Source of the DNA: Octopus sinensis
Taxonomy: Eukaryota
DNA length: 61,647 nucleotides
NCBI RefSeq assembly: GCF_006345805.1
Contig: NW_021834486.1
Span: 1-61,647, forward strand
Direction: 5' to 3'
Shown: piece after piece, positions 5,749 to 61,469 of the stretch
Layout: every line of letters begins with the position of its first letter
How positions within the stretch are numbered: position 1 is the first letter of the stretch
Program-made: the position numbers and the translations under genes
Notes under the pieces: generated by a model
Database searches by the model: none
Told to the model about the DNA's origin: nothing
What the model saw: the letters and a program-made list of their open reading frames with translations, nothing else

Positions 5749-5886
5749 TATTATGGCGGTGCCCCTGTATGGCCACAGCTCGTGAGCTGAAACTAGATAA
5801 AATAAATAAAATATAAATATATTATATACTTATATATATATATATATAATATATATATACACTTTATTTTAAGCAGCAGAAAATTC

Positions 5887-5940
5887 AACAAAATCTGTTA
5901 CTCTGAGTTTCTCGTTGCCGTTCATCAGATAGTTTTTGCT
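5887..5940 (-). ncRNA. Minimal type-I hammerhead ribozyme motif
   Basis: AGCAAAAACTAT-CTGATGA-ACG GCAA CGA-GAAAC TCAGA GTA-ACAGATTTTGTT; GNRA-capped stem II; 12-bp stem I with 2 mismatches. Confidence 0.8.
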
Positions 5941-6039
5941 AGCATATTACTCTACCAATGGTATTTGAGTACTCTTTTTTCCACCTTGTTTCACATTTAT
6001 GTGTTTACTCCGGTATATATATATATATATATATATGCA

Positions 6040-6570
6040 TAGGCGTGGCTGTGTGGTAAGAAACCTGCTCCCCAACCACATGGTTCCGGGTTCAGTCCCA
6101 CCGCGTAGCACCTTGAGCGAGGGTTTTCTATGATAGCATATGGCCGATCAAAGCCTTATGAGTGGATCTAATGGATGAAACTGAAATAAGTCCGTCGTAT
6201 ATACATATATAAATGTGTGTGTGTGTGTGTGTACATACATACTTAGGCGTGGCTGTGTGGTAAGTAGCTTGTTTTCCAACCGCATGGTTCAAGGTTCAGT
6301 CCCACTGTGTGGCACCGTGGGTATGTGTCTTCTACTATAGCCTCAGGCCGACCAAAGCCTTATGTGTAGATCTGGTAGACGGAAATTGAAAGAAGCCCGT
6401 TGAGTGTATTTCTTTACATTTGTGTTTTTCTCCACCACCACCGCTTCACAGCTGCTGTTAGTTTGTTTACACCCCCGTAACGTAGCGTTTCGGCAGAGAC
6501 AACGATGGATATAATAGACGACACAATAAAGAAATATTGGGATCGATCTGTTCGACGCAACCCCTCAAGT
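6040..6570 (+). mobile_element. Two diverged SINE A copies
   Basis: Heads at ~6040 and ~6245. Confidence 0.8.
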
Positions 6571-6715
6571 ACACTCCATCGCGTGATCGGGCCATCACCC
6601 TCACGATCATATCTGCATGGAGGGCAGGGTGGCCTTTGGACACCCAACACGATGAAAAACAAGGCCCATCAAAGTGTGGCTAACAGCCATCCACTAACAA
6701 CATATATATTATCTG

Positions 6716-7338
6716 CGTGGAGGCATATGGTCAACTAGTTAGAGCAGCGGACTCGCAGTCGAGGGATCGCTGGTTCAAATCTCAAACCGAGCGATGTGTG
6801 TGTTTATGTGCGAAACACCAAAAGCCCCGGCAGAAAGTAATGGTGAACTTCTGCTGACTCTTTCACCACAACTTTCTCTCGCTATTTCCTCTTGCATCCA
6901 GCAGCTCACCTGCGACGGACCGGCGTCCCGTCCAGGTGGGGAACCTATACACCAAGAAACCGGGAAACCGGCCCTTATGAGCCAGGCATAGCTCGAGAAG
7001 GAACAAACAAAAAACATACACATACACACATACACATAGTGGAGGCACATGGCCTAGTGGTTAGAGCAGCGGACTTGCGGTCGAGGGATCGCAGGTTCGA
7101 ATCTCACACCGGGCAACGTGTGTGTTTATGTGCGAAACACCTAAAGCCCCGGCAGAAAGTAATGGCGAACTTCTGCTCATTTTTTTGTCACAACTTTCTC
7201 TCGCTCTTTCCTCCTGCATCCAGCAGCTCACCTGCGACGGACCGGCGTCCCGTCTAGGTGGGGAACCTATACGCCAATGAAACCGGGAAACCGTTCCTTG
7301 TGAGGCAGGCTTCGATCGAGAAGGGACAAACAGGAACA
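6716..7338 (+). mobile_element. Two tandem tRNA-derived SINEs (family C-related head, distinct 3' part)
   Basis: GTGGAGGC..TGG.CTAGTGGTTAGAGCAGCGGAC..GGTTCGAATC; copies ~6716-7013 and ~7038-7338. Confidence 0.85.
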
Positions 7339-7425
7339 TACATTATCTGCAGTCAGTCGTTGCGGTTATTCCTGTTCATGGCTTTCACATGACTTGATAA
7401 CCTTTCCCTATACTGGTCAGTTTCT

Positions 7426-8703
7426 TACCGTAAATCCTTGAGTATAGTCCACCCTTGAGTATAATATGCAGGGCATTTTTAGGGGGCTGTACCTCTGAAA
7501 AACCTAAACTTTGTGTATAATACGCACCCCTTCTCTAACTTGAGTCAAGGAGGTCTATATAACGTCCTTGGTTTGTAAAAAGGTATACGATAATGTTCTT
7601 TATTATTATTGTATATATAACATAAAGCAAACGTGTATTCGCAGGGGATTTTTAGGGGGCTGTACCGCTGAAAAACTGAAACCTTGTGTATAATACGCAC
7701 CCCTTCTCTAACTTGAGTCAAGGAGGTCTATATAACGTCCTTGGTTTGTAAAAAGGTATACGATAATGTCCTTTATTATTATTGTATATATAACATAATG
7801 CAAACGTGTATTCGCAGGGGATTTTTAGGGGGCTGTACCTCTGAAAAACTGAAACCTTGTGTATAATACGCACCCCTTCTCTAACTTGAGCCAAGGAGGT
7901 CTATATAACGTCCTTGGTTTGTAAGACTGTATACGGTAATAATGTCCTTTATTATTATTGTATATATAACATAATGCAAACGTGTAGCTTTTTTGTGCAT
8001 TTTGTTTGCAGAAAATAAAGAAATAACAGTAATAACTTTTAATAAATGTTGCTTATTGCAAGTTATGGATGATTCTTTTATGACTTCATTTCTTTCAGGC
8101 TTAGCTTAAGGTATTTTCGCGCCGGACATCACAAAATGCGTCTGAATAAACATTGCCGGACAGCAAATAGAGACTCAGACATTGCTTAGAAAATATTTTT
8201 CATTTTTGACCTCGTAGGCGCAGGAGTGGCTGTGTGGTAAGTAGCTTGCTAACCAACCTCATGGTTCCGGGTTCAGTCCCACTGCGTGGCATCTTGGGCA
8301 AGTGTCTTCTGCTATAGCCCCGAGCCGACCAATGCTTTGTGAGTGGATTTGGTAGACGGAAACTGAAAGAAGCCTGTCGTATATATGTATATATATATAT
8401 ATGTGTGTGTGTGTGTTTGTTGTGTCTGTGTTGTTCCCCTAGCATTGCTTGACAACCGATGCTGGTGTGTTTTTACGTCCCCGTCACTTAGCGGTTCGGC
8501 AAAAGAGACCGATAGAATAGTACTGGGCTTACAAAGAATAGTCCCGGGGTCGATTTGCTCGACTAAAGGCGGTGCTCCAGCATGGCCGCAGTCAAATGAC
8601 TGAAACAAGTAAAAGAGAAAGAGAGAGAGTATATAGTACGCATGAGGGATTTCGACCCTTAAATTTTTTGGGGGAAAAGCGGATTATACTCGAGGATTTA
8701 TAC
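7426..8703. mobile_element. pogo/Tc2-like MITE with three internal ~177-bp repeats, interrupted by a SINE A
   Basis: TIRs TACCGTAAATCCTTGAGTATA / TATACTCGAGGATTTA; repeats ~7460-7985. Confidence 0.65.
8216..8627 (+). mobile_element. SINE family A, full length
   Basis: Complete head to tail. Confidence 0.92.
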
Positions 8704-8714
8704 TCGAGTTTGCC

Positions 8715-8950
8715 ATTTATTATGGTGAATCCCTTTCCGCTTCATCTTGCTTTTTGCAAGGTCTTTGAATCTCATTCTGGGGTCTTCCTTGATTTCTTTT
8801 CCCTTTGCATTGTCGGCGGGGGGGGGGGGGTAAAGGATTTGTCTGAGGGGGTCTTGTGTACGTGTTCCAACCAATGTAAACTTCTATCAATGAGGTTGTT
8901 ATATATCAATGATGATATATATATTCTCGCAAAGCGGACCCTCGTAAAGT
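8715..8950 (-). mobile_element. Degenerate RTE LINE fragment
   Basis: Minus strand reads GRP-RMRFKDLAKSKMKRKG (frameshifted). Confidence 0.5.
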
Positions 8951-9002
8951 GAGGTATTACTGTATATGTGTGTGCATATATTTATATCTATCTATCTATC
9001 TA

Positions 9003-9065
<63 letters not shown>

Positions 9066-9669
9066 AACCTTTACATAAATAAATAACGTGAAATACACGA
9101 AGGGACGAACAAAAAACAAACGGGTCATTCAAAGCCTTCGTTCTTCAGTCAGAAACTGATCCCTCATCGCAGATTTCGGCTGTTTAATTCTGAGATCCGC
9201 TCTGAATCAGCCAGCCACAGAAGGAAAGAATGAAACGCAACAGAGACGAACATGAAACGAAAAATCTTTTTTGGGGACAGTAACGGTTAAAAACATGGAT
9301 GACACAGGCGCCCTACGGCTTTGAGACAAAAAGAGACACAAAAACAATATCAGATTGGCTGAGGCAGCAAGTCGCAAGAGGGTAAGAGAGGGGACCAAGG
9401 AGGGTGGAAGGTGAGGACAGAAGCAGCGATCAAGAGAGAGAGGGAGAGAAGGAATCAGAGAAGAAGCAGTGACCAAGATATATATATATATATACCGAAA
9501 ATTTTCGGTATGTGGTTTAAGCAACTTGTTGCAAAAAAACCCCCTTTATTATAAATATATAAATTTTTACCGAATATGGTCCTTTTCCATACCGAAATAC
9601 TACTTGGTGAAATTTGTTGATTTTATTAAATTAATTATATTTCACCCTTTATCTATAATATATATATAT

Positions 9670-9821
9670 ATCACTCCCAGGACTTATTCTTTGTAAACCT
9701 GTAACCTATTCTATCGGTTTCCTTTTGCCGAACCGCTAAGTTACAGGGACACAAACACACTAACATCGGTTGTCAAACGATGGTGAGGGCCAAACACACA
9801 CACACACACACACATATAATA

Positions 9822-9857
<36 letters not shown>

Positions 9858-9962: not shown

Positions 9963-9964
9963 AA

Positions 9965-10670
9965 CAGGGTGGCACAGGGAAACGTAACACGGGTTCTGTA
10001 GCATAACGTAAACACAGAAAAGACATTTACACGCGTCGAAACATCAAGCCTTACGTTGGCAAGTGTCATCGTGTGTTTTTTCGACCGAAAAGTAGGCATT
10101 TAATTGCTGTACACATGTGAAACGATATGGCTTCCACTTCAGACTTTTCAACGCTCGTTAGCATGACTTCCATCTTTTGCGAGACGGCTGCGCAGATTAA
10201 CTGGTTGACTTCTTTCAACTTCGAGTAATCCTTCGACGAATGTTCTGAACAACTTCCGATGTTTGTAGGGTCTCACCGTAACACGCCACTTCTTAACTAA
10301 TATTTGTACCATTCACTTCGCCTGTAAACCTTTTACCACGAAACTTAACTTCAAAAATTTTGTGCGTTAGCTTGACAGAACCCGTTCTCACATACGCTTC
10401 CATAATCTCCACTCTTCCCGCTTTTGGGTACGCCATCTTGCAAAATGGGCTAGAATGTTCACTCAGTGGAATCTTACAGTCACCTAAGGCGGTGAGGGTA
10501 ACGCAGCAAGCAATAGACTTGTACGTCATCTTCGTTCAGCGGTTACAAGCGGTCAAAATAGCACAATGGCGCTTGCAAACGAAAGGCTGGGCGTTTTTTT
10601 TTTTTTTGAGTGTACACAATGATTTACACAATGCTAAAGAACCCGTGCTATGATTCGTCCGCCACCCAGT
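9965..10670 (-). mobile_element. Internally deleted Tc1/mariner-superfamily element
   Basis: Imperfect TIRs CAGGGTGGC...ACACGGGTTCTGTAGCAT / ATGCTAAAGAACCCGTG...GCCACCCAG; peptide MAYPKAGRVEIMEAYVRTGS...FEVKF resembles a DUF4817-type N-terminal HTH. Confidence 0.7.
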
Positions 10671-10732
10671 ATGTATATATATATATATATTATATATGAA
10701 AAAATGGAGTTGAACGACTAGTTAACAAATAT

Positions 10733-10827
10733 CCTTTATTCTCGACATATGTTTCGAAGGCTGCATATTCCTAATTCCGAAGGAATAAGGAGTACATTAT
10801 GCAGATTTCTCATCAGGAAAATCAAGG
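10733..10827 (-). ncRNA. Type-I hammerhead ribozyme motif, long stem II
   Basis: CCTTGATTTTC-CTGATGA-G..CTGCATA...TATGCAG..C-GAAAC ATAT GTC-GAGAATAAAGG; 10/11 stem I pairs; palindromic ACATATGT. Confidence 0.85.
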
Positions 10828-10843
10828 AACTTATGTCGACATC

Positions 10844-10994
10844 AAAATGGAGGAAAAACAATAAATTGGGGTGTATCGTTCATGCTAAAAAGGCATTATT
10901 TAATTAGTTAGGCAATGTGAAGGTAACTAACAGATAAAATAATGCCTTTTTAGCACCAAAGATACACCTCAATTTGTTGTTTTTCCTTCATTTT
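10844..10994. repeat. Fold-back inverted repeat adjacent to the hammerhead
   Basis: AAAATGGAGGAAAAACAATAAATTG...TGCTAAAAAGGCATTATTT vs its reverse complement. Confidence 0.85.
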
Positions 10995-17798: not shown

Positions 17799-18174
17799 TA
17801 TATTATTATTATTATTATTATTATTACTATTATTATGTTTTCAATTTTTGTCACACAGGCAGTTTGGGGAAGGTGAGGATGAGTTGATTCCATCGACCCC
17901 AGTGTTTCACTGGTACTTAATTTATCGACCTCGAAACGATGAGAAAACCCTCGATTCAAAAACACCGTTTACAAACTCTGTGCTTGGAATGACCAATTTC
18001 AAATACTATCGGAACATACAAGGTACTGGAATCTTATATGTTTACCATTCTGCCTAAATAATGGAACTGAAAATACAATATCCCTGCATATCAGACGCCT
18101 ATTTTCATTCCTCCACTTCACTCTCTATTTCATATCTTATCTAGAATAACTATTGCTTAACCATTTTCTCACAC

Positions 18175-18224
18175 CGTCTCCGATGAAGGGATATAAGAGA
18201 TATCCCGGAAACAGCTGTAAGGCC
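18175..18224 (+). ncRNA. Type-I hammerhead motif (CCGATGA core variant)
   Basis: GTCT-CCGATGA-A GGGATAT AAGAG ATATCCC G-GAAAC AGCT GTA-AGGC. Confidence 0.75.
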
Positions 18225-18289
18225 TATTTATAAATGTTCTGAAATCTTTCACAACCTTGGATCTTTATCTCATTCTGTTAATATATATA

Positions 18290-18652
18290 TACTAGCGGTA
18301 TCACCCGGCGTTGCTCAGGTTTGTTTCGACCCTTTAGAATTGGAATTTTTGAAAAGTAAAAAGTTTGCATTATGTAGCTTGTTATTCTCTTTAAGTGAAC
18401 ATTTTTCTGGTTGAAATACATCGAAAAATGGCGACACAGCAGTCAAAAAATCGTAAAAAATAGAGATTTTCATAGAAAAAAAAAAGCACCTTTTTGATGT
18501 AAATAATTTTTGGTGTTAACATGGTCCGATTTGAATTTTCTATCATACTCTCAATTTTGGTCAACTTGCGCTGCAGGGTCTCGGAGGAGATAGTGATAGT
18601 TGAAGGCTACCAAACCTGCCATATACAGACAACTTCAGCTTTATATATATAG
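18290..18652 (+). mobile_element. Helitron/Helentron-associated non-autonomous element (HINE-like)
   Basis: Start ACTAGC..CACCCGGCGTTGCTCAGGT, end ACAGACAACTTCAGCTTTATATATATAG; class from recall. Confidence 0.45.
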
Positions 18653-20940: not shown

Positions 20941-21367
20941 TTACCATAAAGTCAACTTGAAACGCAAAGATTCATACTATTCATAAATACATACATACAT
21001 TGATATCGTGTAAGTGGTGTGTATATGTTTATATGCGAGTTTTTGTTTGTGTGTGTGTGTGTGTGTGTGTTTACTGCAGAGAGAATAACTGTTTTGCTCT
21101 GTTATATATGTATTGTCTCTAACACGACAATTCTGACACATTTTATCTCAGACAATTCTGCAGCATCACGCCGTCTAAAGGTCTATATACAATTTGTATG
21201 AAACATAGGATAGGTAGCGATTATATATAAATATGTATGCATATACGAATACATAATATATATATATATATATATATACAGGTACACACATATATACACA
21301 CACAGACATTAGCCACTAAACAGATCGTTAGCCACTACACACATTTTTGTCTCCTTGTTTTTTCTGT

Positions 21368-21409
21368 GTCCCTTTCTGTAGAAGAGCGTAGGCTCGAAAC
21401 ATAAAAGAC
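21368..21409 (+). ncRNA. Hammerhead-like motif with 8-nt core variant
   Basis: GTCCCTTT-CTGTAGAA-GAGC GTAG GCTC-GAAAC ATA-AAAGAC; homologue at 61093. Confidence 0.55.
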
Positions 21410-21514
21410 TTTTTTCTATTCATGAATGTTATACTAATACATCTGTTTGTTTTGTCCACCACCTGTCTTCGTCTTTTGTTTTTCTTTGTAAACTCTCCCT
21501 ACATATATGTATAT

Positions 21515-22031
21515 CACGTGACCGACCAGACCATCAGATGTTGTTACACATCGCTGGTCACAATGCGCTTCGCATTGTTTTAGCTTTCAAATGACACCAC
21601 CCACCCGAGCAGGCCCACAGAGAAAGAGTGGCTAAGGGAGAGAAAGAGTAAAGAGTGGAGAAAGAGTGGTGAAATCGTACAGCAGGGATCGCCACCACCC
21701 CCTGCCGGAGCAGTGAAATTAACGATTAAGTGGCTGAGCACTCCACAGACACGTGTACCCTTAACGTAGTTCTCGGGGATATTCAGCGTGATACAGAGAG
21801 TGACAAGGCCGGCCTTTTGAAATACAGGTACAACAGAAACAGGAAGTAAGAGTGAGAGAAAGTTGTGGTGAAAGAGTACAGCAGGGATCACCACCATCCC
21901 CTGCAGGAGCCTCGTGGAGCTTTTAGGTGTTTTAGCTCAATAAACACTCACAACGCCGGGTCTGGGAATCGAAACCGCGATCCAACGACCGTGAGTCCGC
22001 TGCCATAACCACTGGGCCATTGCGCCTCCAC
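21515..22031 (-). mobile_element. SINE family C (composite/nested)
   Basis: Head at ~21960-22031; second body fragment to the left. Confidence 0.85.
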
Positions 22032-22139: not shown

Positions 22140-22195
22140 GTCTTACAGTTGTTTCGGGGATATCCCAGAGTATGGGATATTCCATCATCAGAGAC
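22140..22195 (-). ncRNA. Type-I hammerhead ribozyme motif
   Basis: GTCT-CTGATGA-TGGAATATCCCA TACTC TGGGATATCCCC-GAAAC AACT GTA-AGAC. Confidence 0.85.
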
Positions 22196-22499
22196 AAATA
22201 GGGAAAACGAGACGGGTATAGATTAATGAAATGAGGACAGGAGTAAAGGAATAAGGAGATGAAGAGGGAGAAGAAAAACGAAGCGTAAAAGTTCACTGTT
22301 CAACTTTCCGATGTTGTAGAAATAAGTGTATAAGTCCTTTGTGTCTAGCTAGCTATAGATAGCTAGATAGATAGATACATAGATAGATAGATAGATAGAT
22401 AGATAGTTAGTTAGCTAGATAGCTACATATCTATCTATCTATATCTATCTATCTATCTATCTATAAGATATATATATATATATATATATGTTCTCTCTA

Positions 22500-22855
22500 T
22501 ATTTGTTCTCTTGAAAATCGCCGCCGCCGTGGTGATCTCATTCTCGCCCACAACATCATAAGCGGGAAGTGTAACCTCTCGAAAGAGCTGTTCTTCACTC
22601 CTGCTCCGGAGCGTCGGCTGCGGGGTCATTCCGAAAAGCTCTACCTGCGACGATTTCATCTCAATCGAAGGAGAGGAGCTTCTCCGTCCGGGTTGCGGAT
22701 CCGTGAACAAGCTGCCAGACGAGATGGTGAAGATGCCGACGACCGCTTTGTTCAAAGCCTCCCTGGACCTCAAAGTGGCCTGAAACTCTTTACATGAACA
22801 CCACCCTGCTACTTAACTCATGTCCCTACATGGCCTTGCTATTGCTTTTGAGCCT
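22500..22855 (+). mobile_element. CR1-type LINE 3' fragment
   Basis: Highly similar to 28480-28830, with frameshifts. Confidence 0.85.
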
Positions 22856-26565: not shown

Positions 26566-26959
26566 TGCACGTACTCACGACATTTATACGGTTGGCTAGA
26601 TTTTCTTTATAGATTCATTCACGATTAATTCCGTCCTTTCTCTCACGTGTTATTGTACACACACACGCACACACACATACACACACGTATATATATATAT
26701 GATACTGTAATAAACAACTTTGTGGATATATAATTTTCCATTTTTCTCTTCGCGTCTTAAATATATATACTCGTTTTATGGCATAAAACTCAAAGAATCG
26801 AACCCAGGATGTTCAAACTGAGTGAAAGATGTGCCACCGTTTACCTTGAACAATTTCCTGTTGGGCTTTACCATTCGATGTGGTTAGCCACGGCCTGGAT
26901 TATACTGCAGTGCCCAGATTTAATACCCCTATCCCTTCACAATATGTCTGTATGTATGT

Positions 26960-27935
26960 AAACCTAAAAAAAGGTTTAAGGACGGCGTAAGGATTACTTC
27001 TATATTTGCTGCGAGTATACTCTGCGATGACATCTCTCACGCCGGACTTCTTTCTGATGATCTCGCTATTGATGTGCTCTCTCAACGAGATACCAAGCAT
27101 TGACCTTTCCATGGCTCTTTGAGCCGTTACCAGTCTTTGCTCTTCTCTCTTTGTGGTAGCCCATGTTTCACTACCATATACAGCAAGTATAGGTGGGCTG
27201 GACACGTCGCCCGGCTCACCGATAATCGGTGGACGCACGCAGTTGTCGAGTGGTACCCGCGTGAACGGAAGAGACCACCCGGAAGACCTCCACGACGGTG
27301 GAGTTACGATTTCAGGAGGACGATTGGGATCACGTGGATGAGAAAGGCGCGATCCAGAGAGGAGTGGACAGCGTGCTGTGACCAGCGGTGTCAAATGGAC
27401 GCCTGACGAACTGGTTGGTCAAAGTGATCAGTGATAAGGATTACTATGAAGTCACTTGGAATGGATCCGGAAGGCATAGAAACCCTTGCTTTGGATAGAG
27501 TTGGATGGCGAACAAAGGTGTGGATTGGAGTGAAAGCATTTGAAGAGGCCAGGATAATGGATGTAAGATCCAAAAGAGATCTAAGGAAGAATGTTACGAT
27601 CGAGAAGGTGAATGGTAATGACCTTTTTGTGTCCACAGTCTGTGACTGAACTGACCATGCCTGTCTTTTGCTGGCCTTATATCTCACCTGTGAATGCATG
27701 GGAAACGAACCTCCACCAGCTATTCTGCCTATATGTCTGTGCACACCTTTCAATGCAGTGTATGCCAGAAGGTTTGCAAATCCAACAGAGGCCTCAAAAT
27801 ACATTCTAAGATCCACAAAGATCAGAACTTAACTGCAGCTCTTGATGGTCCAAATCAGATATGCGATCTACGTGGGTGTCTTTTCAGAACATTGTCTGGT
27901 TTAAAAAGCTACATCAGATGCATAAGGAGTAGAAA
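26960..27935 (+). mobile_element. 5'-truncated RTE (BovB-like) LINE with C-terminal C2H2 fingers, split by a nested insertion
   Basis: KPKKRFKDGVRIT|MKSLGMDPEGIETLALDRVGWR...; FQCSVCQKVCKSNRGLKIHSKIH. Confidence 0.8.
26999..27434 (+). mobile_element. RTE-clade LINE 3' fragment with 5' inversion
   Basis: Minus part YGSETW...RAMERSMLG...EYTRSKY; plus part SKYRWAGHVAR..RPPGRPPRRW; TSD TAAGGATTACT (26988-26998 / 27435-27445). Confidence 0.9.
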
Positions 27936-28323
27936 ACCACCATGTATGTATGTATGTATGTGTAAATTTAATTATATATACATTATTTCATGATACTTCT
28001 CGGTACGTTTGCATATACAATGTAAAAGGGGAATATATGAAGTCGAATAATTAATAGAGAAATAAGTGTTTATAGAGGTGAATGCAAATATACAAATATA
28101 CATATACAGTATTCTATATATAATCTTTAAGAGTACGTGTGTTTGAAAAGGTTAAACAAAAGCGCACACAAACTAGAATAAAATTTCATCCCCCAAAAAG
28201 GTTAGTGACATCCTAACAAAAGATTTCATAAAATTTGTTGAAAATTTTCTGTTTTTAAACCACCTTATCTTTACACTTCAAAACTGTATCAAGTAATCCT
28301 CAAAAACTTTCATATATATATAT

Positions 28324-28850
28324 ATGAGACCCATATTGGAGTACGGGATTCAAGCCTCTTCTCCTTATCTCCTCAAAGACATACATAATCTCGAAAGATT
28401 CCAGAAGCTGGCTACCCGCATGGTTCTTGGTCTCAAGCATTTGTCTTATGAAGAAAGGCTGAAGACGCTTGACCTTTATTCTCTAGAAAAACGACGACGC
28501 CATGGTGATCTCATTCTTGCTCACAACATCATAAGCGGAAAGTGTAACCTCTCGAAAGAGCTGTTCTTCAATCCTGCTCCAGAGCGTCGGCTGCGGGGTC
28601 ACTCCGAAAAGCTCTATCTGCGACGATTTCATCTCAACCGAAGGAGAGAGGCTTTCTCCGTCCGGATTGCAGATCCGTGGAATAAGCTGCCGGACGAGAT
28701 AGTGAAGATGCCGACAACCGCTCGGTTCAAAGTCTCTCTTGACCAGAAATGGCCTGAACTCTTTGCATGAACACCCTCCCTGTACATAACTCCATGTCCC
28801 CCTACATGGCCTTGCTTTTTGCTTTTTAAGCCAAAAAATTAACTTAACTT
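28324..28850 (+). mobile_element. CR1-type LINE 3' end (ORF2 C-terminus + 3' UTR)
   Basis: RPILEY...LERFQKLATRMV.GLKHLSYEERLKTLDLYSLEKRR.HGDLI...LRGH..KL...FSVR..DPWNKLP. Confidence 0.92.
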
Positions 28851-28928: not shown

Positions 28929-29013
28929 TCTTTTACAGCTGTTTCGATTTTACCCAAAGGATTAAATTCCAATAATTAAAACATTGGGGGTGGGGGGAAT
29001 CTCGTCAGAGGAG
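28929..29013 (-). ncRNA. Hammerhead motif, long stem II, eroded stem I
   Basis: CTGACGA-GATT...AATC-GAAAC AGCT GTA. Confidence 0.7.
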
Positions 29014-29921: not shown

Positions 29922-29964
29922 GAACCTGAAGATTGCAGAATTTAATACATGAAAGTACTAGTTC
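29922..29964 (+). ncRNA. Minimal hammerhead motif with CUA triplet
   Basis: GAAC-CTGAAGA-(weak stem II)-GAAAG TA CTA-GTTC. Confidence 0.7.
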
Positions 29965-31671: not shown

Positions 31672-32467
31672 CATTGAGTGAGAGAGCAGTGCATACCTAT
31701 TTCTTTATTACCCACAAGGGGCTAAATACAGAGGGGACAAACAAGGACAGACATAGGTATTAAGTCGATTACATCGACCCCTGTGCGTAACTGGTACTTA
31801 ATTTATCGACCCCGAAAGGATGAAAGGCAAAGACGACCTCGGCGGAATTTGAACTCACAACGTAACGGCAGACGAAAAACCGCTAAGCATTTCGCCCGAC
31901 GTGCTAACGATTGTGCCAGTTCGCCGCCCTCCCAGCAGTGCATACCATCAAAGTGACACTGGGCTAAAATATACGAAGCCCAGTATACCCATCATTACAA
32001 CCCGTCTGATAAGGGTACACTAGGCACATGCATCACAACCATATTTGCATGACATGGTGATCTCATATCAAAATTAACAGTGCATGGACTTGCAGGTGGG
32101 CCCAGTTAAAATTTTCTTCTGGTTGAGTAACCCATCCTGCTCAAATGGTCCCTGAATAAGGGTGATTTAAGGATGTTGAACGAAACACCCATGCTTCCAA
32201 AGGTGAATTATTCAAACCCCAAAGAATCTCTATGATGCTCCCCTACTACTTCTGCTCGTGATCAGAGATGCACCTATCATCAGCCACTAACGGACATGCT
32301 CAACTGGTTAAGGTCAAACAACTGACAAGTAAATCTGTGGTATTGAGCAGAATATTTGCTGTAGCCCATCCTTTTATGCAAAGACAAAACAATGTACATG
32401 ATAACACTTCCAATCAGTTAAGATCAGAAGCCATGAGAGCCACTGCCTGGTACTGCATCAGGGCATT
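31672..32467 (+). mobile_element. Repeat family D body (probable retroposon), interrupted by SINE B
   Basis: Homologous to 41400-41575 on the minus strand; array ends in an (ATT)n tail. Confidence 0.7.
31698..31933 (-). mobile_element. SINE family B with TSD
   Basis: TSD AGCAGTGCATACC (31685-31697 / 31934-31946). Confidence 0.9.
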
Positions 32468-34818
32468 AGCAAATCTGTGGTATTGAGCAGAATATTTGCT
32501 GTAGCCCATCCTTTTATGCAAAGACAAAACAATGTACATGATAACACTTCCAATCAGTTAAGATCAGAAGCCATGAGAGCCACTGCCTGGTACTGCATCA
32601 GGGCATTAGCAAATCTGTGGTATTGAGCAGAATATTTGCTGAAGACCTCTTTTACACCAAGACAAAACAATGTACATGATAACACCTCCAATCAGTTAAG
32701 ATCAGAAGCCATGAGAGCCACTGCCTGGTACTGCATCAGGGCATTAGCAAATCTGTGGTATTGAGTAGAATATTTGCTGAAGACCATCTTTTACACCAAG
32801 ACAAAACAATGTACATGATAACACCTCCAATCAGTTAAGATCAGAAGCCATGAGAGCCACTGCCTGGTACTGCATCAGGGCATTAGCAAATCTGTGGTAT
32901 TGAGCAGAATATTTGCTGTAGCCCATCCTTTTATGCAAAGACAAAACAATGTACATGATAACACTTCCAATCAGTTAAGATCAGAAGCCATGAGAGCCAC
33001 TGCCTGGTACTGCATCAGGGCATTAGCAAATCTGTGGTATTGAGCAGAATATTTGCTGAAGACCATCTTTTACACCAAGACAAAACAATGTACATGATAA
33101 CACCTCCAATTAGTTAAGATCAGAAGCCATGAGAGCCACTGCCTGGTACTGCATCAGGGCATTAGCAAATCTGTGGTATTGAGTAGAATATTTGCTGAAG
33201 ACCATCTTTTACACCAAGACAAAACAATGTACATGATAACACCTCCAATCAGTTAAGATCAGAAGCCATGAGAGCCACTGCCTGGTACTGCATCAGGGCA
33301 TTAGCAAATCTGTGGTATTGAGCAGAATATTTGCTGTAGCCCATCCTTTTATGCAAAGACAAAACAATGTACATGATAACACTTCCAATCAGTTAAGATC
33401 AGAAGCCATGAGAGCCACTGCCTGGTACTGCATCAGGGCATTAGCAAATCTGTGGTATTGAGCAGAATATTTGCTGAAGACCATCTTTTACACCAAGACA
33501 AAACAATGTAATGATAACACTTCCAATCAGTTAAGATCAGAAGCCATGAGAGCCACTGCCGGTACTGCATCAGGGCATTAGCAAATCTGTGGTATTGAGC
33601 AGAATATTTGCTGAAGACCATCTTTTACACAAGACAAAACAATGTACATGATAACACCTCCAATCAGTTAAGATCAGAAGCCATGAGAGCCACTGCCTGG
33701 TACTGCATCAGGGCATTAGCAAATCTGTGGTATTGAGTAGAATATTTGCTGAAGACCATCTTTTACACCAAGACAAAACAATGTACATGATAACACCTCC
33801 AATCAGTTAGATCAGAAGCCATGAGAGCCACTGCCTGGTACTGCATCAGGGCATTAGCAATCTGTGGTATTGAGCAGAATATTTGCTGTAGCCCATCCTT
33901 TTATGCAAAGACAAAACAATGTACATGATAACACTTCCAATCAGTTAAGATCAGAAGCCATGAGAGCCACTGCCTGGTACTGCATCAGGGCATTAGCAAA
34001 TCTGTGGTATGAGCAGAATATTTCTGAAGACATCTTTTACACCAAGACAAAACAATGTACATGATAACACTTCCAATCAGTTAAGATCAGAAGCCATGAG
34101 AGCCACTGCCTGGTACTGCATCAGGGCATTAGCAAATCTGTGGTATTGAGTAGAATATTTGCTGAAGACATCTTTTACACCAAGACAAAACAATGTACAT
34201 GATAACACCTCAATCAGTTAAGATCAGAAGCCATGAGAGCCACTGCCTGGTACTGCATCAGGGCATTAGCAAATCTGTGGTATTGAGCAGAATATTTGCT
34301 GTAGCCCATCCTTTTATGCAAAGACAAAACAATGTACATGATAACACTTCAATCAGTTAAGATCAGAAGCCATGAGAGCCACTGCCGGTACTGCATCAGG
34401 GCATTAGCAAATCTGTGGTATTGAGCAGAATATTTGCTGAAGACCATCTTTTACACCAAGACAAAACAATGTACATGATACACTCCAATCAGTTAAGATC
34501 AGAAGCCATGAGAGCCACTGCCTGGTACTGCATCAGGGCATTAGCAAATCTGTGGTATTGAGCAGAATATTTGCTGTAGCCCATCCTTTTATGCAAAGAC
34601 AAAACAATGTACATGATAACACCTCCAATCAGTTAGATCAGAAGCCATGAGAGCCACTGCCTGGTACTGCATCAGGGCATTAGCAAATCTGTGGTATGAG
34701 CAGAATATTTGCTGAAGACCATCTTTTACACCAAGACAAAACAATGTACATGATAACACCTCAATCAGTTAAGATCAGAAGCCACGAGAGCCACTGCCTG
34801 GTACTGCATCAGGGCATT
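32328..34818 (+). repeat. Tandem array of 18 x ~139-bp family D 3' ends
   Basis: Unit AGCAAATCTGTGG...GCATCAGGGCATT. Confidence 0.95.
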
Positions 34819-35620: not shown

Positions 35621-35840
35621 ACTACTGAGAAAAGCTCCTTAGTGTTAATGTAAAGCTGTTCTCAGAAATAGGCAAGGGAGAGAACTCGCGTAATTTTAGT
35701 AAAAAAAAAACAAAAAAAAATAAAAAGCAATTAGCGATATGCAATGGAGTGAGAGGCACAGTGACATTTTGATCTCTGGTAGCCATGGTGGTCAGCTCGG
35801 ACATGTTTCATTCCTTTTTGAGGTCTCTTTAGTGAAATAC
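35620..35840 (-). mobile_element. Hammerhead-bearing module, degenerate inverted copy of 36860-37080
   Basis: Minus strand: CTAAAGA GACCT CAAAA AGGAAT GAAAC AT GTC CGAGCTG, plus ~170 bp of downstream homology. Confidence 0.75.
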
Positions 35841-35989: not shown

Positions 35990-36830
35990 AGTGGGGACGC
36001 AATGACCCAGTGGTTAGGGCGGCGGACTCGCGGTCGGAGGATCGCGGTTTCGATTCCCAGACCGGGCGTTGTGGGGAATTACAACCGTGTTTCGTAGTCT
36101 GCTACCACAACAGCTCCTTTATAGGATCCAGTTAGCTCAAGACATCATCAGGAGGAACCACGTCCGGTTTCGGCCCCTACTCCTCTGCCGTTTTGACGTG
36201 GCGGCCCCCATCCTTTCGGAGGTGTCTTCAGCTCTGGTGTTGGGTGCATGTCTTCGTTCTTCTTTCTTCTGTTCCTTGGCCTCTTCGATGTATCGTCAGC
36301 GAGTGTCAGCCGGTGACTGACTGTCTTGTCAAATTTCTCCCTTTAAATACCTGCCGCATAGGCTCCAGCAGGCAGCCCCAGCAAGTTGTTATTGAGCGAG
36401 AACACCTAAAAGCTCCACGAGGCTCCGGCAGGGGGTGGGGGCGACCCCTGTTGTTGTCTTTTGCTCCAACTTTCTCTCACTCTTTCTTCCTGTTTCTTGA
36501 CCCCAACTTCCTACGCAACCGCTGAGCCTGGATGCGCATCCATCCATCCGTCGAAGCTCTCGGTGTCGGGGGCTGACCTGCTTTCTCTTCTGCGGGTCTT
36601 ATGGATAGCAAAGGACCACGTTTCGGACTTCTCCCACTACTTGCAAGCTCTGGGACGAAGACAGCTTCGCTCAACAAACGCAACCGCTGAGCCTGGATGC
36701 GCATCCAATCATCCGTCGATGCTCTCGGTGTCGGGGGCTGACCTGCTTTCTCTTCTGCGGGTCTTATGAATAGCAGAGGACCACGTTTCGGACTTCTCCC
36801 AAGACGAAGACCACTTCGCTCAACAAACAA
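35990..36830 (+). mobile_element. SINE family C with ~320-bp insertion and duplicated ~165-bp 3' end
   Basis: Head ~35990-36070, body resumes ~36388, repeats at ~36514 and ~36678. Confidence 0.75.
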
Positions 36831-36863: not shown

Positions 36864-36904
36864 TTTCACTGAAGAGACCTCAAAAAGGTCGAAACATGTC
36901 CGAG
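36864..36904 (+). ncRNA. Minimal type-I hammerhead motif
   Basis: CTGAAGA-GACCT CAAAA AGGTC-GAAAC AT GTC; stem I weak. Confidence 0.8.
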
Positions 36905-40096: not shown

Positions 40097-40354
40097 GGTA
40101 ATGAAGGAGCAACAACTCTTGGAGTATGGCATATACGACCATTAACCATCTTTTAAACTTCTTTTAAATCTCATTGTGTGTTGACATCTGGCTATAATTT
40201 CTATAGAGAATCTGTAGAGATAACCTTAGCAAGTGATGTAGTAACACTGCTAACACAGTAGAACACAGTATTCTTTTTTGTTTTGCTTAAGAATACAACG
40301 TGCTGGTCGGTCCAGGAATCGAAACCACAATCTTACGACAATGAGTCTAACCAC

Positions 40355-41575
40355 TATCATGTACATTGTTTTGTCTTGGTATAAAAGATGGGCTACAGCA
40401 AATATTCTGCTCAATACCACAGATTTGCTAATACCCTGATGCAGTACCAGGCAGTGGCTCTCATGGCTTCTGATCTTAACTGATTGGAAGTGTTATCATG
40501 TACATTGTTTTGTCTTGGTATAAAAGATGGGCTACAGCAAATATTCTGCTCAATACCACAGATTTGCTAATGCCCTGATGCAGTACCAGGCAGTGGCTCT
40601 CATGGCTTCTGATCTTAACTGATTGGAAGTGTTATCATGTACATTGTTTTGTCTTGGTATAAAAGATGGCCTACAGCAAATATTCTGCTCAATACCACAG
40701 ATTTGCTAATGCCCTGATGCAGTACCAGGCAGTGGCTCTCATGGCTTCTGATCTTAACTGACTGGAAGTGTATCATGTACATTGTTTTGTCTTGTATAAA
40801 AGATGGGCTACAGCAAATATTCTGCTCAATACCACAGATTTGCTAATGCCCTGATGCAGTACCAGGCAGTGGCTCTCATGGCTTCTGATCTTAACTGATT
40901 GGAAGTGTTATCATGTACATTGTTTTGTCTTGGTATAAAAGATGGGCTACAGCAAATATTCTGCTCAATACCACAGATTTGCTAATGCCCTGATGCAGTA
41001 CCAGGCAGTGGCTCTCATGGCTTCTGATCTTAACTGACTGGAAGTGTTATCATGTACATTGTTTTGTCTTGGTATAAAAGATGGGCTACAGCAAATATTC
41101 TGCTCAATACCACAGATTTGCTAATGCCCTGATGCAGTACCAGGCAGTGGCTCTCATGGCTTCTGATCTTAACTGATTGGAAGTGTTATCATGTACATTG
41201 TTTTGTCTTGGTATAAAAGATGGCCTACAGCAAATATTCTGCTCAATACCACAGATTTGCTAATGCCCTGATGCAGTACCAGGCAGTGGCTCTCATGGCT
41301 TCTGATCTTAACTGATTGGAAGTGTTATCATGTACATTGTTTTGTCTTGGTATAAAAGATGGGCTACAGCAAATATTCTGCTCAATACCACAGATTTGCT
41401 TGTCAGTTGTTTGACCGTAACCAGTTGAGCATGTCCCTTAGTGGCTGATGATATGCGCATCTCTGATCACGAGCAGAAGTAGTGGGGGAGCATCATAGCC
41501 ATGTGTTGAGAGGGATTCTTTAGGGTTTGAATAATTCACCTCTGGAAACATGGGTGTTTCGTTCAACATCCTTCA
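40355..41575 (-). repeat. Second family D copy with ~7.5 tandem 139-bp 3' units
   Basis: Reverse complement of the 32.3-34.8 kb unit; body 41400-41575. Confidence 0.95.
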
Positions 41576-47157: not shown

Positions 47158-47384
47158 GTCGAGCGCTTACTGTTTACATCTCATTCAGAGATTTATTATT
47201 GCTGTATATATATATATATATTGAAATGGATAAATGAATTATCTTGTTAAGGATTATTCAAAATTTAACCGATACCTGGGTAGCAAAAATCACAACAGAA
47301 AAAAACACGGTTGAAGTTACGACCTTGGGGTGTCGCAACCGTGCCTTAGCGCGGATAATTGAAGTTTAATATATTTAGTGAAGG

Positions 47385-47495
47385 GAAGAAATGGAGCTGA
47401 ACGAAGATTCTACAGAATTCCTTTTATTATTTTCTACACATGTTTCAAAGGCCGCAAATTTCCAAATTCGGACTGAATAAGGAGACCATTTTGTT
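47385..47495 (-). mobile_element. Truncated copy of the 10.7-kb hammerhead module
   Basis: AATGGAG.TGAACGA...TCCTTT.ATT..ACA.ATGTTTC.AAGGC.GCA shared; retains GAAAC ATGT GTA, lacks CTGATGA. Confidence 0.65.
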
Positions 47496-47518
47496 CTTCC
47501 CTTCACTAAATATATATA

Positions 47519-55740: not shown

Positions 55741-55794
55741 CGTGGTGGTGGCGGTGCTGGTGTTGCTGATGGTTGTGGTAATTGCTGTGATGGT

Positions 55795-56192
55795 GCTGTG
55801 TGGTAAGTAGCTTGCTAACCAACCACATGGTTTCCGGGTTCATCCCACTGCGTGGCATCTTGGGCAAGTGTCTTCTACTATAGCCCCGGGCCGACCAATG
55901 CCTTGTGATGGATTTGGTTTGACGAAACTGAAAGAAGCCCGTCGTATATATGTAATATATATGTATGCGTGTGTGTGTTTGTTGTGTCTGTGTTTGTCCC
56001 CCTAGCATTGCTTGACAACCGATGCTGGTGTGTTTACGTCCCCGTCACTTAGCGGTTCGGCCAAAAGAAACAGATAGAATAAGTACTGGGCTTACAAAAA
56101 GAATAAGTCCCGGGGTCGAGTTGCTCGGCTAAAAGGCGGTGCTCCAGCATGGCCGCAGTCAAATGACTGAAACAAGTAAAAGAATAAAAGAA
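55795..56192 (+). mobile_element. SINE family A
   Basis: Family consensus match. Confidence 0.9.
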
Positions 56193-56300
56193 TATATATA
56201 CAATAATAGGCTTCCAAATAGGAAAGTGTTATGCTAAAACACAGAAAAGGGATAAATTCACGAAAGGAATGAAAATTGAAAACAATTACCATCTCAACTA

Positions 56301-56375
56301 TATCCCAGACCGAACGGTTTCTAACTATTTCCAGCAAAAAAATATTTGCTGAAGGCCACTTTCTTCAGTGGGACA
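56301..56375 (-). ncRNA. Type-I hammerhead ribozyme motif
   Basis: TGTCCCA-CTGAAGA-..TTCAGCAAA TATTT TTTGCTGGA..-GAAAC CG TT CG GTC-TGGGATA; 7-bp stem I. Confidence 0.85.
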
Positions 56376-56534
56376 GCCTTAACTAATCCTGACATAAGAC
56401 TGCTAGATCCACATGTAGATCTAACGTTTGTAAAACCTAACAACTTTCAAACCTCTGCGCAGACGCAATTACCCGCGACAGAGAGGATACGGTAAAAATT
56501 TCGAACAAATTTATCAAACAATATATATATATAT

Positions 56535-56577
<43 letters not shown>

Positions 56578-57805: not shown

Positions 57806-58224
57806 TAAGACAAAAATAATGGGTTATATACATTTATTCGTCTACTAGCTTAAAAGACTTTCAAGCCAGCTCCTGCGGAGAGGTAATTCGGTCGAAGCCG
57901 AAAACTAAAGAGAGCTAAATAGCAGGACTATATAATATAGCCGTGCTGTTTATAATGACTAAATGCCCCGGTGGTGTTTGATCAGACGTTAATGACGAAC
58001 GAGAACGAAATATGTAATGCAATCGTTCTATTCTTCCACTCCCAAACTGAATTCCAACTGTTGGCCACTGTGTTCCCAAAGTTCTTATCTTGACGTAGAA
58101 GTAACGAAACGGATGTCATTTACGTCGCTCTTGATATCTGACGTCATCTGACAAACGCCGACCAAGATGGCGTGGATCATCCAAGCTTTACCCGCGAGAA
58201 ACAGCAATTCGAATACTTTTAAAT

Positions 58225-58575
58225 CAGAAGCGCTTCAAGGACAGTCTCAAAGTCTCTCTCAAGGACTTCCCCATCGGCACAGAGACTTGGGAGACACTTG
58301 CTGCCGACCGCTCATCCTGGCGCAGCGCAATCACCACAGGAGCAAAGACAGCCGAGGAGAGACGGATTCAGTCAGCAGAACAGAAACGCCAGATGCGGAA
58401 AGCCAGAGCCACCTGCACCAATAGCACAGCCCCTACCCACTTCTGCCCCACTTGTGGGAGGGGCTTTCTTGCCCGGATTGGCTTCACCAGCCACCTCCGG
58501 TCTCATAGCAGCAATTCCACCAAATGATGTCAATGGTCATCTTCGAACCGAAGGACGAACATTATCATTATTATA
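58225..58575 (+). mobile_element. RTE (BovB-like) LINE 3' end, frame open to stop at 58527
   Basis: QKRFKDSLKVSLKDF...WETLAADRSSWRSAI...HFCPTCGRGFLARIGFTSHLRSH; 3' UTR ATGGTCATCTTCG..CGAAGGACGAAC. Confidence 0.9.
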
Positions 58576-58653
58576 TTATAAATCAGATCCCAATGCTGGG
58601 TGTTCAACAACCAAATGAAGGTTAGATTTTCAATCCCGGGATCATCCTGATTC

Positions 58654-59818
58654 TATTGGGGTGTCCGGAAAGTTCATGCCGATTTTTAAAGGAAAGAAAA
58701 AAGGTCAATAAATACTTGTCATTACATTTTTAATCAACCAAATCTGAACCATTTTGTTGCACAATGCGTCTCCATCTTTCCTTTAACTTGAAAATACCCT
58801 CTTCTCCACAATTGCTCAAAAACCACTTTTGGTTGTTTATGTCACCATAACTGGGCAGTTTGGCAATAAACAGATGAATAAAATAGGGGCCAGATTTGAG
58901 AAAAAGAGTAAAGTACTGGTGATGATTTGTTGAATTAAAAGAACACTCCAGCATGGCCATTGTTTAATAACTGAAACAAGTAAAATATTGGGGTGTCCGG
59001 AAAGTTCGTGCTGATTTTTAAAGAAAAGAAAAAGGTCAATAAATACTTGACATTACATTTTTAATCAACCAAATATGAACCATCGCTACAAGCAATACCA
59101 TCAGCACTACCACCACCACAACAATAGTCGTAACTGTCATGAAAATCGCAAGGATCACAATCTTAATCTTTCCTTTAACTTGAAAATACCCTCTTCCCAG
59201 AACTGAGGTGATTTCATGGCAAAGAATTCATCAAGGTATCTTTTAACGTCATCCAAGGAATAGAAATTTTCACCATTAAGACTATTCTGCAGAGACCTGA
59301 ATAAGTGGAAATCCGAACGAGCTATATCTGGTGAATATGGAGGGTGGGGTAACACATCCCAGCCGAGCTGCAGCAATTTTTATCTGGTTCCCGAAGCATC
59401 AAGTGCCGAAAATGAACTTTTTTATCTTCCATTTTAAAGGGTTACAGAATTAACACAGGTTATAGGAACAGAAACCTTCTTCCACGAAAAGATAGCTTAA
59501 ACTGTGCTCTAAATGGAGGTGTAGTCAAATCCTATTTTATGGACTCAACTTTGTTCTAAAATAAGTCGAAAGGTAAGCTACTATAAATCGGCACGAACTT
59601 TCCGGACATCCCAGCCGAGCTGCAGCAATTTTTATCTGGTTCCCAAAGCATCAAGTGCCGAAAATGAACTTATCTTCCATTTTAAAGGGTTACAGAATTA
59701 ACACAGGTTATAGCAACATAAACCTTCTTCCACGAAAAGATAGCTTAAACTGTGCTCTAAATGGAGGTGTAGCCAAATCCAATTTTATGGACTCAACCAT
59801 GTTCTAAAATAAGTTGAA
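58654..59818 (-). mobile_element. Rearranged, internally deleted mariner elements
   Basis: TIR GGGGTGTCCGGAAAGTTCGTGCCGATTT at ~58657, ~58989 and inverted at ~59585-59613; GWDVLPHPPYSPDIARSDFHLF. Confidence 0.9.
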
Positions 59819-59819
59819 A

Positions 59820-60230
59820 GGCGCAGGAGTGGCTGTGTGGTAAGCAGCTTGTTTACCAACCACATGGTTCCGGGTTCAGTCCCACTGCGTGGCACCTTGG
59901 GCAAGTGTCTTCTACTATAGCCTCGGGCCGACCAAAGCCTTGTGAGTGGATTTGGTAGACGGAAACTGAAAGAAGCCCGTCGTATATATGTACATATATA
60001 TATATGCGTGTGTGTATGTTTGTGTGTCTGTGTTTGTCCCCCTAGCATTGCTTGACAACCGATGCTGGTGTGTTTATGTCCCCTTTACTTTGCGGTTCGG
60101 CAAAAGGAGACCGATAGAATAAGTACTGGGCTTACAAAAGAATAAGTCCCGGGGTCGAGTTGCTCGATTAAAGGCGGTGCTCCAGCATAGCCGCAGTCAA
60201 ATGACTGAAACAAGTAAACGAGTAAAGAGT
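59820..60230 (+). mobile_element. SINE family A
   Basis: Full length. Confidence 0.92.
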
Positions 60231-60232
60231 AT

Positions 60233-60291
<59 letters not shown>

Positions 60292-60438
60292 TAGCGTTTC
60301 TGCTGGTTCGTTATGTTCTCAGTTCAAATTTTGTTGACGTTCACTTGCTTTTCATCGTTTCGGGTTCGATAAAATTAGCAGCAGTCGAGTACGGGGCGGG
60401 GGTCGATGTAATCGCCTTACCCCCTCCCCCGAAACTAT

Positions 60439-60518
60439 TGGAGGAGTGGCTATATTTAAATTGAATTGATTTTACTGTTTATCACTTCTTAAATATAGCC
60501 ACGAAACACGTGTAGTCA
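60439..60518 (+). ncRNA. 5'-clipped hammerhead motif
   Basis: ..GAGGA-GTGGCTATATTTAA...TTAAATATAGCCAC-GAAAC ACGT GTA; 5' side replaced by SINE B sequence. Confidence 0.65.
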
Positions 60519-60680
60519 TTTTACCAATTATATACATTATATTTATTATTTTGTACATTACTTAATCATTGGTATATGTTTTTATCTTATATTCAATTTT
60601 TTCTTTAGGATGTAATTTTTTTCTATATAGTATAATTGAATTTTTTAATTGTTGAATTGATGAAAGTTGGTTTATTTCTA

Positions 60681-60723
<43 letters not shown>

Positions 60724-60742
60724 AACATTCCTGTCACAATCT

Positions 60743-60786
60743 GGGACCTTGAAGACTGCTTAAATGCAAGAAAGTATACTAGTCCC
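60743..60786 (+). ncRNA. Hammerhead motif with CUUGAAGA core and CUA triplet
   Basis: GGGAC-CTTGAAGA-CTGC TTAAAT GCAA-GAAAG TATA CTA-GTCCC. Confidence 0.7.
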
Positions 60787-61092
60787 TTAATATTTTATGT
60801 TCAATATTTCATCTATTCAATAAGACAATCAATACTTCATTTTATTTTACTATAAATACTATTTGTACTATATATTCTATATTCTACATTAATATTATAA
60901 AGAATATAAATAAAACATAAAAAACAGAGTTGGAATTCCTTTGAATAATATATATCCCTCTATACACAATCATACAAATCCCTTTATATATATATATATA
61001 TAAAGGGAAAGTTTACGAAAATAAACAAAAGACGAAGGCAGGTGGAGTACAAACAAACAAATGTATTAGTATAACGCTCAGGAATAGAAAAA

Positions 61093-61133
61093 GTATTTTA
61101 CGTTTCGAGCCTACGCTCTTCGACAGAAAGATA
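61093..61133 (-). ncRNA. Hammerhead-like motif with 8-nt core variant (homologue of 21368)
   Basis: TTT-CTGTCGAA-GAGC GTAG GCTC-GAAAC GTA-AAATAC. Confidence 0.55.
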
Positions 61134-61469
61134 CACAGAAAAAACAAGGAGAGAAACAAGGAGAGAAAAAAATGCATGTAGGAGCTAAATATATAATGCT
61201 CACACAAATTTCTCACCAAAGGTTACTATGGGCCTCGCCCGAAGACTGTAGCTGTCATTTCGTTCCTAAATTAATTAAATCACTTAATTAAATTTACTAG
61301 TTTCTTGAGTCTGCCATAAAGATCTGTCATGTTTATTCTACAACCGCAAGATGGTTTCTAAAAACGGGATCTGTATATTAATAGTGTTTCTAGTTTATTA
61401 ATCTTGTTTCTAGAATAGAATACCTTATGAACGAAATCCACTGTGAAATTGCATTTGTAACTATTTTGA

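Follow-up and report, generated by a model that had tools for sequence, protein, structure and literature searches.

Hammerhead ribozymes in the terminal repeats of Penelope-like elements of Octopus sinensis, and a numerous family with uridine at core position 6

Hammerhead ribozymes of Penelope-like elements (PLEs) have already been published in thousands of copies (PMC4209133). Hydra elements carry them too, Hydra-1_oBim of Octopus among these (PMC8557442), and the role of the ribozyme in PLEs that encode an endonuclease (EN+) is stated there as unclear. Retrozymes have also been described (PMC7229834), and an origin from PLEs has been proposed for them (10.64898/2026.07.22.740005). A 2026 repeat annotation of Octopus counts PLEs, the words "ribozyme" and "hammerhead" being absent from its main text (PMC13282606). 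Here and below, PMC8557442, PMC7229834, 10.64898/2026.07.22.740005, PMC3088659, PMC7151607 and PMC9901934 are cited for excerpts of their texts. The present analysis concerns contig NW_021834486.1 of Octopus sinensis (assembly GCF_006345805.1, 2.72 Gb, used for all genome-wide searches), whose whole length of 61,647 nt, rich in (TA)n tracts, is called the window. An initial annotation had reported in it a dense set of minimal hammerhead modules of Penelope or retrozyme-like origin.

I put at about 0.85 the probability that the motifs are genuine type-I hammerheads within the 3' terminal repeats of several PLE families, most window copies being truncated and decaying stubs. Origin from a PLE 3' terminal repeat is shown for three families and is likely for the remaining ones; the family links, the 3' position, the truncation, the inverted and tandem arrangements and the (TA)n ends were observed directly. 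The population is of a known kind and adds one more genome to the published pattern. What is likely to be a new natural variant is the core of the most numerous hammerhead family counted, family I, in which A6 is replaced by a fixed uridine (A6U).

Hammerhead motifs and the elements that carry them

Hammerhead sequence was present at all 15 sites listed by the initial annotation, near the coordinates it gave. Nine of these had been taken as complete and seven do keep the full CUGANGA, GAAA and NUH, namely 5899-5928(-), 10744-10816(-), 22144-22191(-), 28934-29008(-), 29926-29960(+), 36869-36900(+) and 56308-56368(-), five motifs passing a structural descriptor; the other two carry point damage in the core (U4C at 18180, one extra base at 60748). 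The label of clipped, degenerate or variant copies suits 1543, 47435 and 60444, where the 5' core box is absent, and 35800(-), which has a G5A change. As they stand, the sites 18175, 35796, 60743, 1538, 47430 and 60439 do not combine CUGANGA, GAAA, NUH and helices I-III. The same label misdescribes the pair 21368/61093: the CUGUNGA core at 21376(+) and 61099-61126(-) is a fixed trait, U6 being family-wide, and therefore no decay is involved at that letter. The word "minimal" applies to this last family only, helix III being elsewhere a palindrome of 3-4 bp and helix II often long.

An excess over shuffled sequence, proposed in the initial annotation as a check, was obtained in the window and in a sample of the genome. 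A strict descriptor matched the window three times, against means of 0.08 and 0.05 (maximum 2) in two sets of 60 block-wise shuffles and no match in the reversed window; a second descriptor gave five matches against a mean of 0.1 and a maximum of 1 in 30 shuffles. Genome-wide, one exact hammerhead pattern matched 6,318 times and its reversed form 159 times. In a sample of 100 stretches at fixed positions (999.6 kb in total), 31 canonical motifs were counted, against 0-4 in three shuffles, that is about one per 32 kb. The density of roughly one per 5 kb first claimed is thus an overstatement, true only when remnants are counted, since intact-looking motifs number five in the 61.6 kb of the window, or one per 12 kb. 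The excess of the window over the sample is mild (5 versus 1.9 expected, P=0.045), and the window was pre-selected for hammerheads. By rough scaling of the sample, tens of thousands of intact-looking motifs may exist genome-wide, unflagged by Rfam. An Rfam scan of the window gave no match at the gathering score, and the 150 listed of 389 matches by E-value were all of the simple-repeat kind, none a hammerhead.

Chance matching in repetitive, AT-rich DNA is a very improbable source of the motifs. It would fit the small excess when one core mismatch is permitted (4 matches versus 0.4-0.6, maximum 3, in shuffles) and the folding of single motifs, six of eight of which fold no better than shuffles; such poor folding of monomers is, however, what is expected of dimer-type hammerheads, so that the score of two of eight is not surprising. 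The shuffle and reversed-pattern controls and the links of the families to PLE open reading frames (ORFs) speak against chance, and for the families that were traced they refute it; the sites 1538 and 28929 are untraced. A (TA)n tract lies at most 300 nt downstream of 11 of 13 motifs, versus 41% of random positions.

The first of the linked families, family A, is represented by a 5'-truncated element 3' end at 10669..10859(-) with a (TA)n terminus, holding an intact hammerhead with a long helix II at 10744-10816. A first look at the genome gave 1,406 candidates, the top copies being 97-98% alike and many ending in (TA)n and having an inverted copy as partner. Walking upstream from the hammerhead reached a PLE ORF. 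One locus (L083) has the order hammerhead (2930), ORF, hammerhead (6456), the ribozymes being 3,526 nt apart, plus an inverted hammerhead, and another (L081) holds a 787-aa open frame with reverse transcriptase (RT) motifs and a C-terminal nuclease, recognised by eye. Family A shares with the Hydra clade (PMC8557442) a C-terminal nuclease without CCHH, DKT, CxxC and CxH at or near the C-terminus, (TA)n targets and a 3' hammerhead with a helix III of 3-4 bp. It differs from the excerpted description by RWL in place of RWK, the lack of a CxCX5C linker (not found before the nuclease in the L081 frame), an Asn-rich insert, the 3.5-kb spacing from hammerhead to hammerhead and a helix II region of 54 nt. 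Because the linker is absent and a Pfam search of family A frames returned no RT or nuclease family, the clade label, drawn from motifs, is kept at "Hydra-like". By eye, the RT motifs resemble those of Hydra-1_oBim, while the hammerhead differs. An imperfect inverted repeat (78%) at 10844-10994 lies immediately upstream of the window stub and does not occur in other family A copies. A clipped relative (74% alike) at 47385..47493(-) keeps only the 3' half of the hammerhead and is bracketed by a perfect 22-nt inverted repeat (47369-47390 and 47494-47515).

Family B, also Hydra-like, has a 3' end at 17950..18291(+) with the U4C-damaged hammerhead at 18180-18219. Its link to PLEs is through the nuclease end only: in locus L245, an EN-like peptide just upstream of the hammerhead matches the family A C-terminus (E=5e-7). 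The motif region of family C, whose hammerhead at 22144..22191(-) has a full core and one helix III mismatch, resembles that of family B, and no ORF was found in the four family C loci fetched. Tandem pLTR (pseudo-long terminal repeat) copies or inverted 5'-truncated ones were seen at L081, L083, L006 and L015, and the window pair 35800/36869 is an inverted one. Several Hydra-type families begin helix II with U-U, U-A or A-A.

Family I, by contrast with family A, has the features of the Neptune clade. Its two window copies are pLTR stubs, one at 21322..21517(+) with a minimal hammerhead at about 21376-21403 (positions counted manually), core CUGUAGA and a damaged helix III, the other at 60990..61198(-) with a (TA)n terminus and a minimal hammerhead at 61099-61126, core CUGUCGA, helix II GAGC/GCUC and helix III ACGU. 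Family I stubs measure about 200 nt, and 2 of 30 copies found by motif run on into a longer body. Followed upstream, this leads to two RT frames (651 and 429 aa; loci L170-L172) that match Pfam RVT_1 above the cut-off. A CX4CxxC linker is followed at the C-terminus by a GIY-YIG domain that has the CC and HH residues (E=0.002 in Pfam, short of the cut-off), features that would assign the family to Neptune (CX2-5CxxC linker and C-terminal CCHH GIY-YIG). Shared with Neptune elements are the CC between GIY and YIG, the two histidines, the linker, GxRF and the (TA)n ends; the hammerhead core with A6U and, in the one RT copy checked, DKV for DKG set it apart. Young copies are 95-98% alike. A search of the PDB with the family I RT gave no match. 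Seven of 30 stubs (L110-L139) begin 74-80 nt before C3 near GCCATG, perhaps a transcript start, and at locus L099 two distinct subfamilies stand head to tail, 208 nt apart. In copies with N7=A (e.g. 21376-21381), a pyrimidine tract plus CUGUAG looks like a 3' splice site within the core; contigs of four public runs showed no spliced junction at CUGUAG.

Family G is of another sort. Its window stub at 56192..56536(-), with an intact hammerhead at 56308-56368, derives from an ORF-less tandem unit of 431 nt; 859 genome candidates were counted and no PLE protein match was found in 29 loci. In locus L340, consecutive units carry complete hammerheads 431 nt apart. Among 29 copies, the unit junction is crossed by 9 (three locus pairs overlapping), and one begins 2 nt past the cleavage site. 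With its short non-coding units in tandem, one complete hammerhead to each, family G is like a non-LTR (long terminal repeat) retrozyme. It resembles those described (PMC7229834; 10.64898/2026.07.22.740005) in just these traits, and differs from the excerpted accounts in occurring mostly as single units or short tandems and in being known here as DNA units.

Could all the motifs then belong to independent retrozymes, spread through highly expressed circular RNAs, rather than to PLE ends? Family G, with its hammerheads in consecutive ORF-less units, its junction-crossing copies and the copy starting next to the cleavage site, is what such an account would predict. The explanation is rather unlikely all the same: ORFs of PLEs are joined to families A, B and I, family G insertions are inverted and (TA)n-ended as in PLEs, and retrozymes have themselves been proposed to be PLE derivatives (10.64898/2026.07.22.740005). 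Contigs of presumed-RNA runs cover families I and G; as they cannot show strand, level or circles, they were rejected as evidence of expression. The Penelope or retrozyme-like origin first suggested is therefore borne out, three families being joined to PLE ORFs (RT and nuclease for A and I, nuclease end for B) and one to an ORF-less tandem unit. Two negative results weigh on the other side of the PLE-end interpretation. No ORF was linked to 1538, 5887, 22140, 28929, 29922/60743, 35796/36864 and 60439, and tblastn of the window with six PLE peptides gave nothing below E=0.4.

Position 6 of the family I core

Neither window copy of family I (21368, 61093) has A at core position 6. On its letters, family I is hence a hammerhead variant and not a canonical type-I member. 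With positions 6 and 7 left open, its motif has 8,892 exact copies in the genome (control 0), and among the 100 listed position 6 is U in 98, C in two and A in none. A looser pattern matched 16,463 exact copies without A6, 99 of the 100 listed having U6, and 3,936 with A6, mostly members of a sister family whose loop has 3 nt and whose flanks are homologous (the family I loop is present in 2 of 100 listed). A set independent of the motif was provided by 24 copies found in 255 loci by the 3' flank alone, 18 of these copies lying in the 1-Mb sample and duplicate segments being dropped. All 19 flank-found copies that cover position 6 have U6, while N7 is A in five, U in five, C in five and G in four, and H17 is A in 12, U in nine and C in one of 22 copies, never G. 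Counted separately, copies outside motif-picked loci had U6 in 36 cases of 37. In contigs of the four public runs, which bear four species labels, N7 and H17 vary and no position-6 variant reaches 5%. A coding explanation for the free N7, as a third codon position, was rejected, H17=A giving an in-frame stop in 12 of 22 copies.

Of the 26 other positions in the core, helix II and helix III, none has a second allele (at least 15%), whereas 19 of the 76 in the flank do (Fisher p=0.003, a value that overstates independence since family I copies are related). In an alignment of 22 sequences from family I and the sister, 95% of the cells are paired and three of ten pairs change on both sides, chiefly the fourth pair of stem I, which is exchanged between C-G and G-C from one family to the other. 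Within family I such covariation is thin, as helix II hardly varies. In predicted folds of the monomer, U6 permits pairing between U4-G5-U6 and helix III (P about 0.6, n=21; G5-C15.2 P=0.64). Besides the relatedness of the copies and the thin covariation, three points weigh against taking the fixed U6 as a trait selected in a ribozyme: loop II of family I is invariant as well, so that these letters could equally be maintained by a constraint at the DNA level or from protein binding; in the predictions, cores of A6 families mispair to a similar extent (2.25-2.85 versus 2.28 pairs), which means that the off-fold of U6 is not unique; and the A6 sister also forms short stubs, for which U6 is consequently not required.

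In other respects family I resembles the minimal PLE hammerhead consensus (Cervera 2014), with a U-rich leader, a helix I of 3-4 bp, an extra base after A9, G10.1-C11.1, a palindromic CG (15.2-16.2), NUH and a place in the pLTR. It is also alike in occurring mostly as single truncated copies, with some inverted pairs, in thousands per genome. It differs by U6, the rows of the published alignment compared here being CUGANGA or U3 variants only; CUGUUGA, CUGUCGA and CUGUAGA are absent from one of the two supplement files of PMC4209133. No natural A6U or CUGUNGA core was found in the literature and supplement text searched, a scope outside which lies the main survey of PLE hammerhead variants (doi 10.1080/15476286.2016.1251002), which may list U6. 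A natural change at the same U-turn position is known from the A6C hammerhead of phage Bcep176 (PMC3088659, PMC7151607): it is one sequence with C6, whereas the retroelement copies with U6 exceed 16,000. Cores with C6, G6 or U3-A8 show no clear excess in 1 Mb (2, 0 and 12, versus 1, 2-3 and 6-8 in shuffles).

Two extensions of the U6 core were considered and rejected. A candidate second, independent U6 family (helix II GGCUG/CAGCC; 86 matches versus 8 in the control) proved to have 4,220 copies when position 6 was opened, with A6 in 97 of 100 listed, C6 in two and U6 in one; its U6 copies are therefore post-insertion mutants. A metagenome scan gave at least 120 loci, 24 of which fold as U6 minimal hammerheads (chance mean 1.6, maximum 8), yet the inverted partners of such loci mostly have A6, contrary to a wide phylogenetic spread of fixed U6: among five with a script-found partner, this is A6 in four (two being one place) and U6 in L496, and the partner of L417 is A6 by eye. 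Because the second family consists of mutants and the metagenome partners are mostly A6, a single lineage is all in which U6 is shown to be fixed. Locus L496, with U6 in both inverted arms, alone hints that a U6 template may exist in some other genome; viral contigs gave no match to the family I pattern. Besides family I, two large families of minimal hammerheads, with canonical cores, were noticed at L215-L244 and L175-L194 (4,220 and about 3,900 exact copies).

Possible consequences of A6U

Changes of A6 lose core hydrogen bonds, and the A6C ribozyme cleaves at less than 0.1 per minute (PMC3088659); it is nearly dead in Mg2+ and retains activity in Mn2+ (PMC7151607). Single U-turn mutants were all of low activity in a deep scan (PMC9901934). 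Since these published A6C and U-turn mutants are weak, low activity is predicted for family I, and A6U would be likely to slow its cutting. Family I is slightly better than evenly favoured to be an attenuated ribozyme that still keeps its fold.

A possible course of events is as follows. In PLEs generally, the palindromic helices III of two motifs would pair in the element RNA and the dimer would slowly cut tandem precursors, as described for published PLE hammerheads (PMC4209133; review PMC6765202). The element RT and GIY-YIG endonuclease probably inserted the stubs at (TA)n tracts; target-primed reverse transcription from the element 3' end, a step suggested by the PLE literature, would often stop early, so that only the hammerhead-bearing end lands and then decays. 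The hammerhead of a genomic stub would be a passenger, and most window copies, being decaying 5'-truncated stubs, are not the working modules that had been supposed. A6U probably arose in the founder of family I after its split from the A6 sister family. With cutting slowed, short pLTR transcripts would stay intact and be reverse-transcribed into stubs of about 200 nt, in the manner of short interspersed elements (SINEs). None of the 24 flank-found family I copies begins at the cleavage site; given this and the single family G copy of 29 that starts 2 nt past it, the copied templates would have been uncut or rejoined.

Might a recently active Neptune-type PLE instead be running on CUGUNGA, with A6U selected across subfamilies and related species? 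Put at somewhat less than even odds, this proposal allows either a new working core, slow and dependent on dimers or metal, or a fold kept for a job other than cutting. At the one extreme, the U6 motif may be a dead ribozyme whose letters are kept as a pLTR promoter element, a binding site for an element protein or a site of RNA dimerisation. The low activity of U-turn mutants (PMC9901934), the spread of Naiad PLEs without hammerheads (PMC8557442), the lack of starts at the cleavage site and the invariance of loop II agree with it; what makes it doubtful is that only N7 and H17 vary, precisely the two consensus-free sites of the hammerhead, H17 excluding G. At the other extreme, U6 would be a natural core of full activity, the change being made good by the context (contacts in the dimer, the GUAG loop, Mn2+ or an element protein). 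The success of the family, with its 95-98% alike copies and 651-aa open RT frame, and the activity of A6C in Mn2+ lend this some appeal, but the hydrogen bonds lost on A6 changes, the slow A6C cleavage and the fact that no compensating core change is visible in family I render it unlikely. An attenuated ribozyme with its fold preserved thus appears the better description of family I. Whichever holds, a single core letter, one regarded as invariant, separates family I from its A6 sister with the other hammerhead constraints all kept, and the two form a natural pair for testing whether PLEs need cleavage or only the fold. Searches based on CUGANGA miss the entire family.

Remaining sites and other repeats

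The other hammerheads of the window are traced to varying degrees, and relatives of 5887, 29922/60743 and 60439 restore stems or core. The type-I motif at 5899..5928(-) has a full core, a 2-bp helix II and a single stem I mismatch that is paired in its relatives; copies of this family are 90-98% alike, and two occur as inverted pairs. The motif at 29926..29960(+) has a full core and a G15.2-C16.2 helix III, and a relative 92% alike (L102) has helix II restored. The downstream flank of the hammerhead with one surplus core base, at 60748..60781(+), is 76% alike to this family. At 60444..60514(+), helix II, GAAA, helix III and GUA are present and the 5' core is gone where another repeat abuts, a relative (L256) retaining CUGAAGA. 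The sites 36864 and 35796 are an old inverted pair: 36869..36900(+) has a full core and a 4-bp helix II, its partner at 35800..35832(-), with G5A, is 77% alike, and a genome search with the 36864 motif found the window's own pair only. Two motifs are untraced, namely 28934..29008(-), with a full core, a long helix II, stem I paired at two of four positions and no relative among the fetched loci, and 1543..1554(-), a hammerhead 3' half (GAAA, palindromic helix III, GUA) without the upstream CUGANGA.

Other repeats were also noted. Open frames at 22423-22797, 26900-27418, 28297-28770 and 58135-58527 resemble, by their motifs, 3' fragments of long interspersed elements; Pfam gave no match for these frames. 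At 32331-34818 a 139-bp unit is repeated 18 times in tandem, and a second array at about 40216-41486, some 7 kb away, is inverted and 97% complementary to the first; no hammerhead was found by descriptor in either. Two SINE-like repeat families extend over 3116-60029 (12 copies, 224 nt) and 1635-57642 (9 copies, 185 nt). Between the members of the inverted hammerhead pair lie a tRNA-like head, recognised by eye, at about 35990-36070 and, at 36535-36828, a local duplication of about 145 nt (83%).

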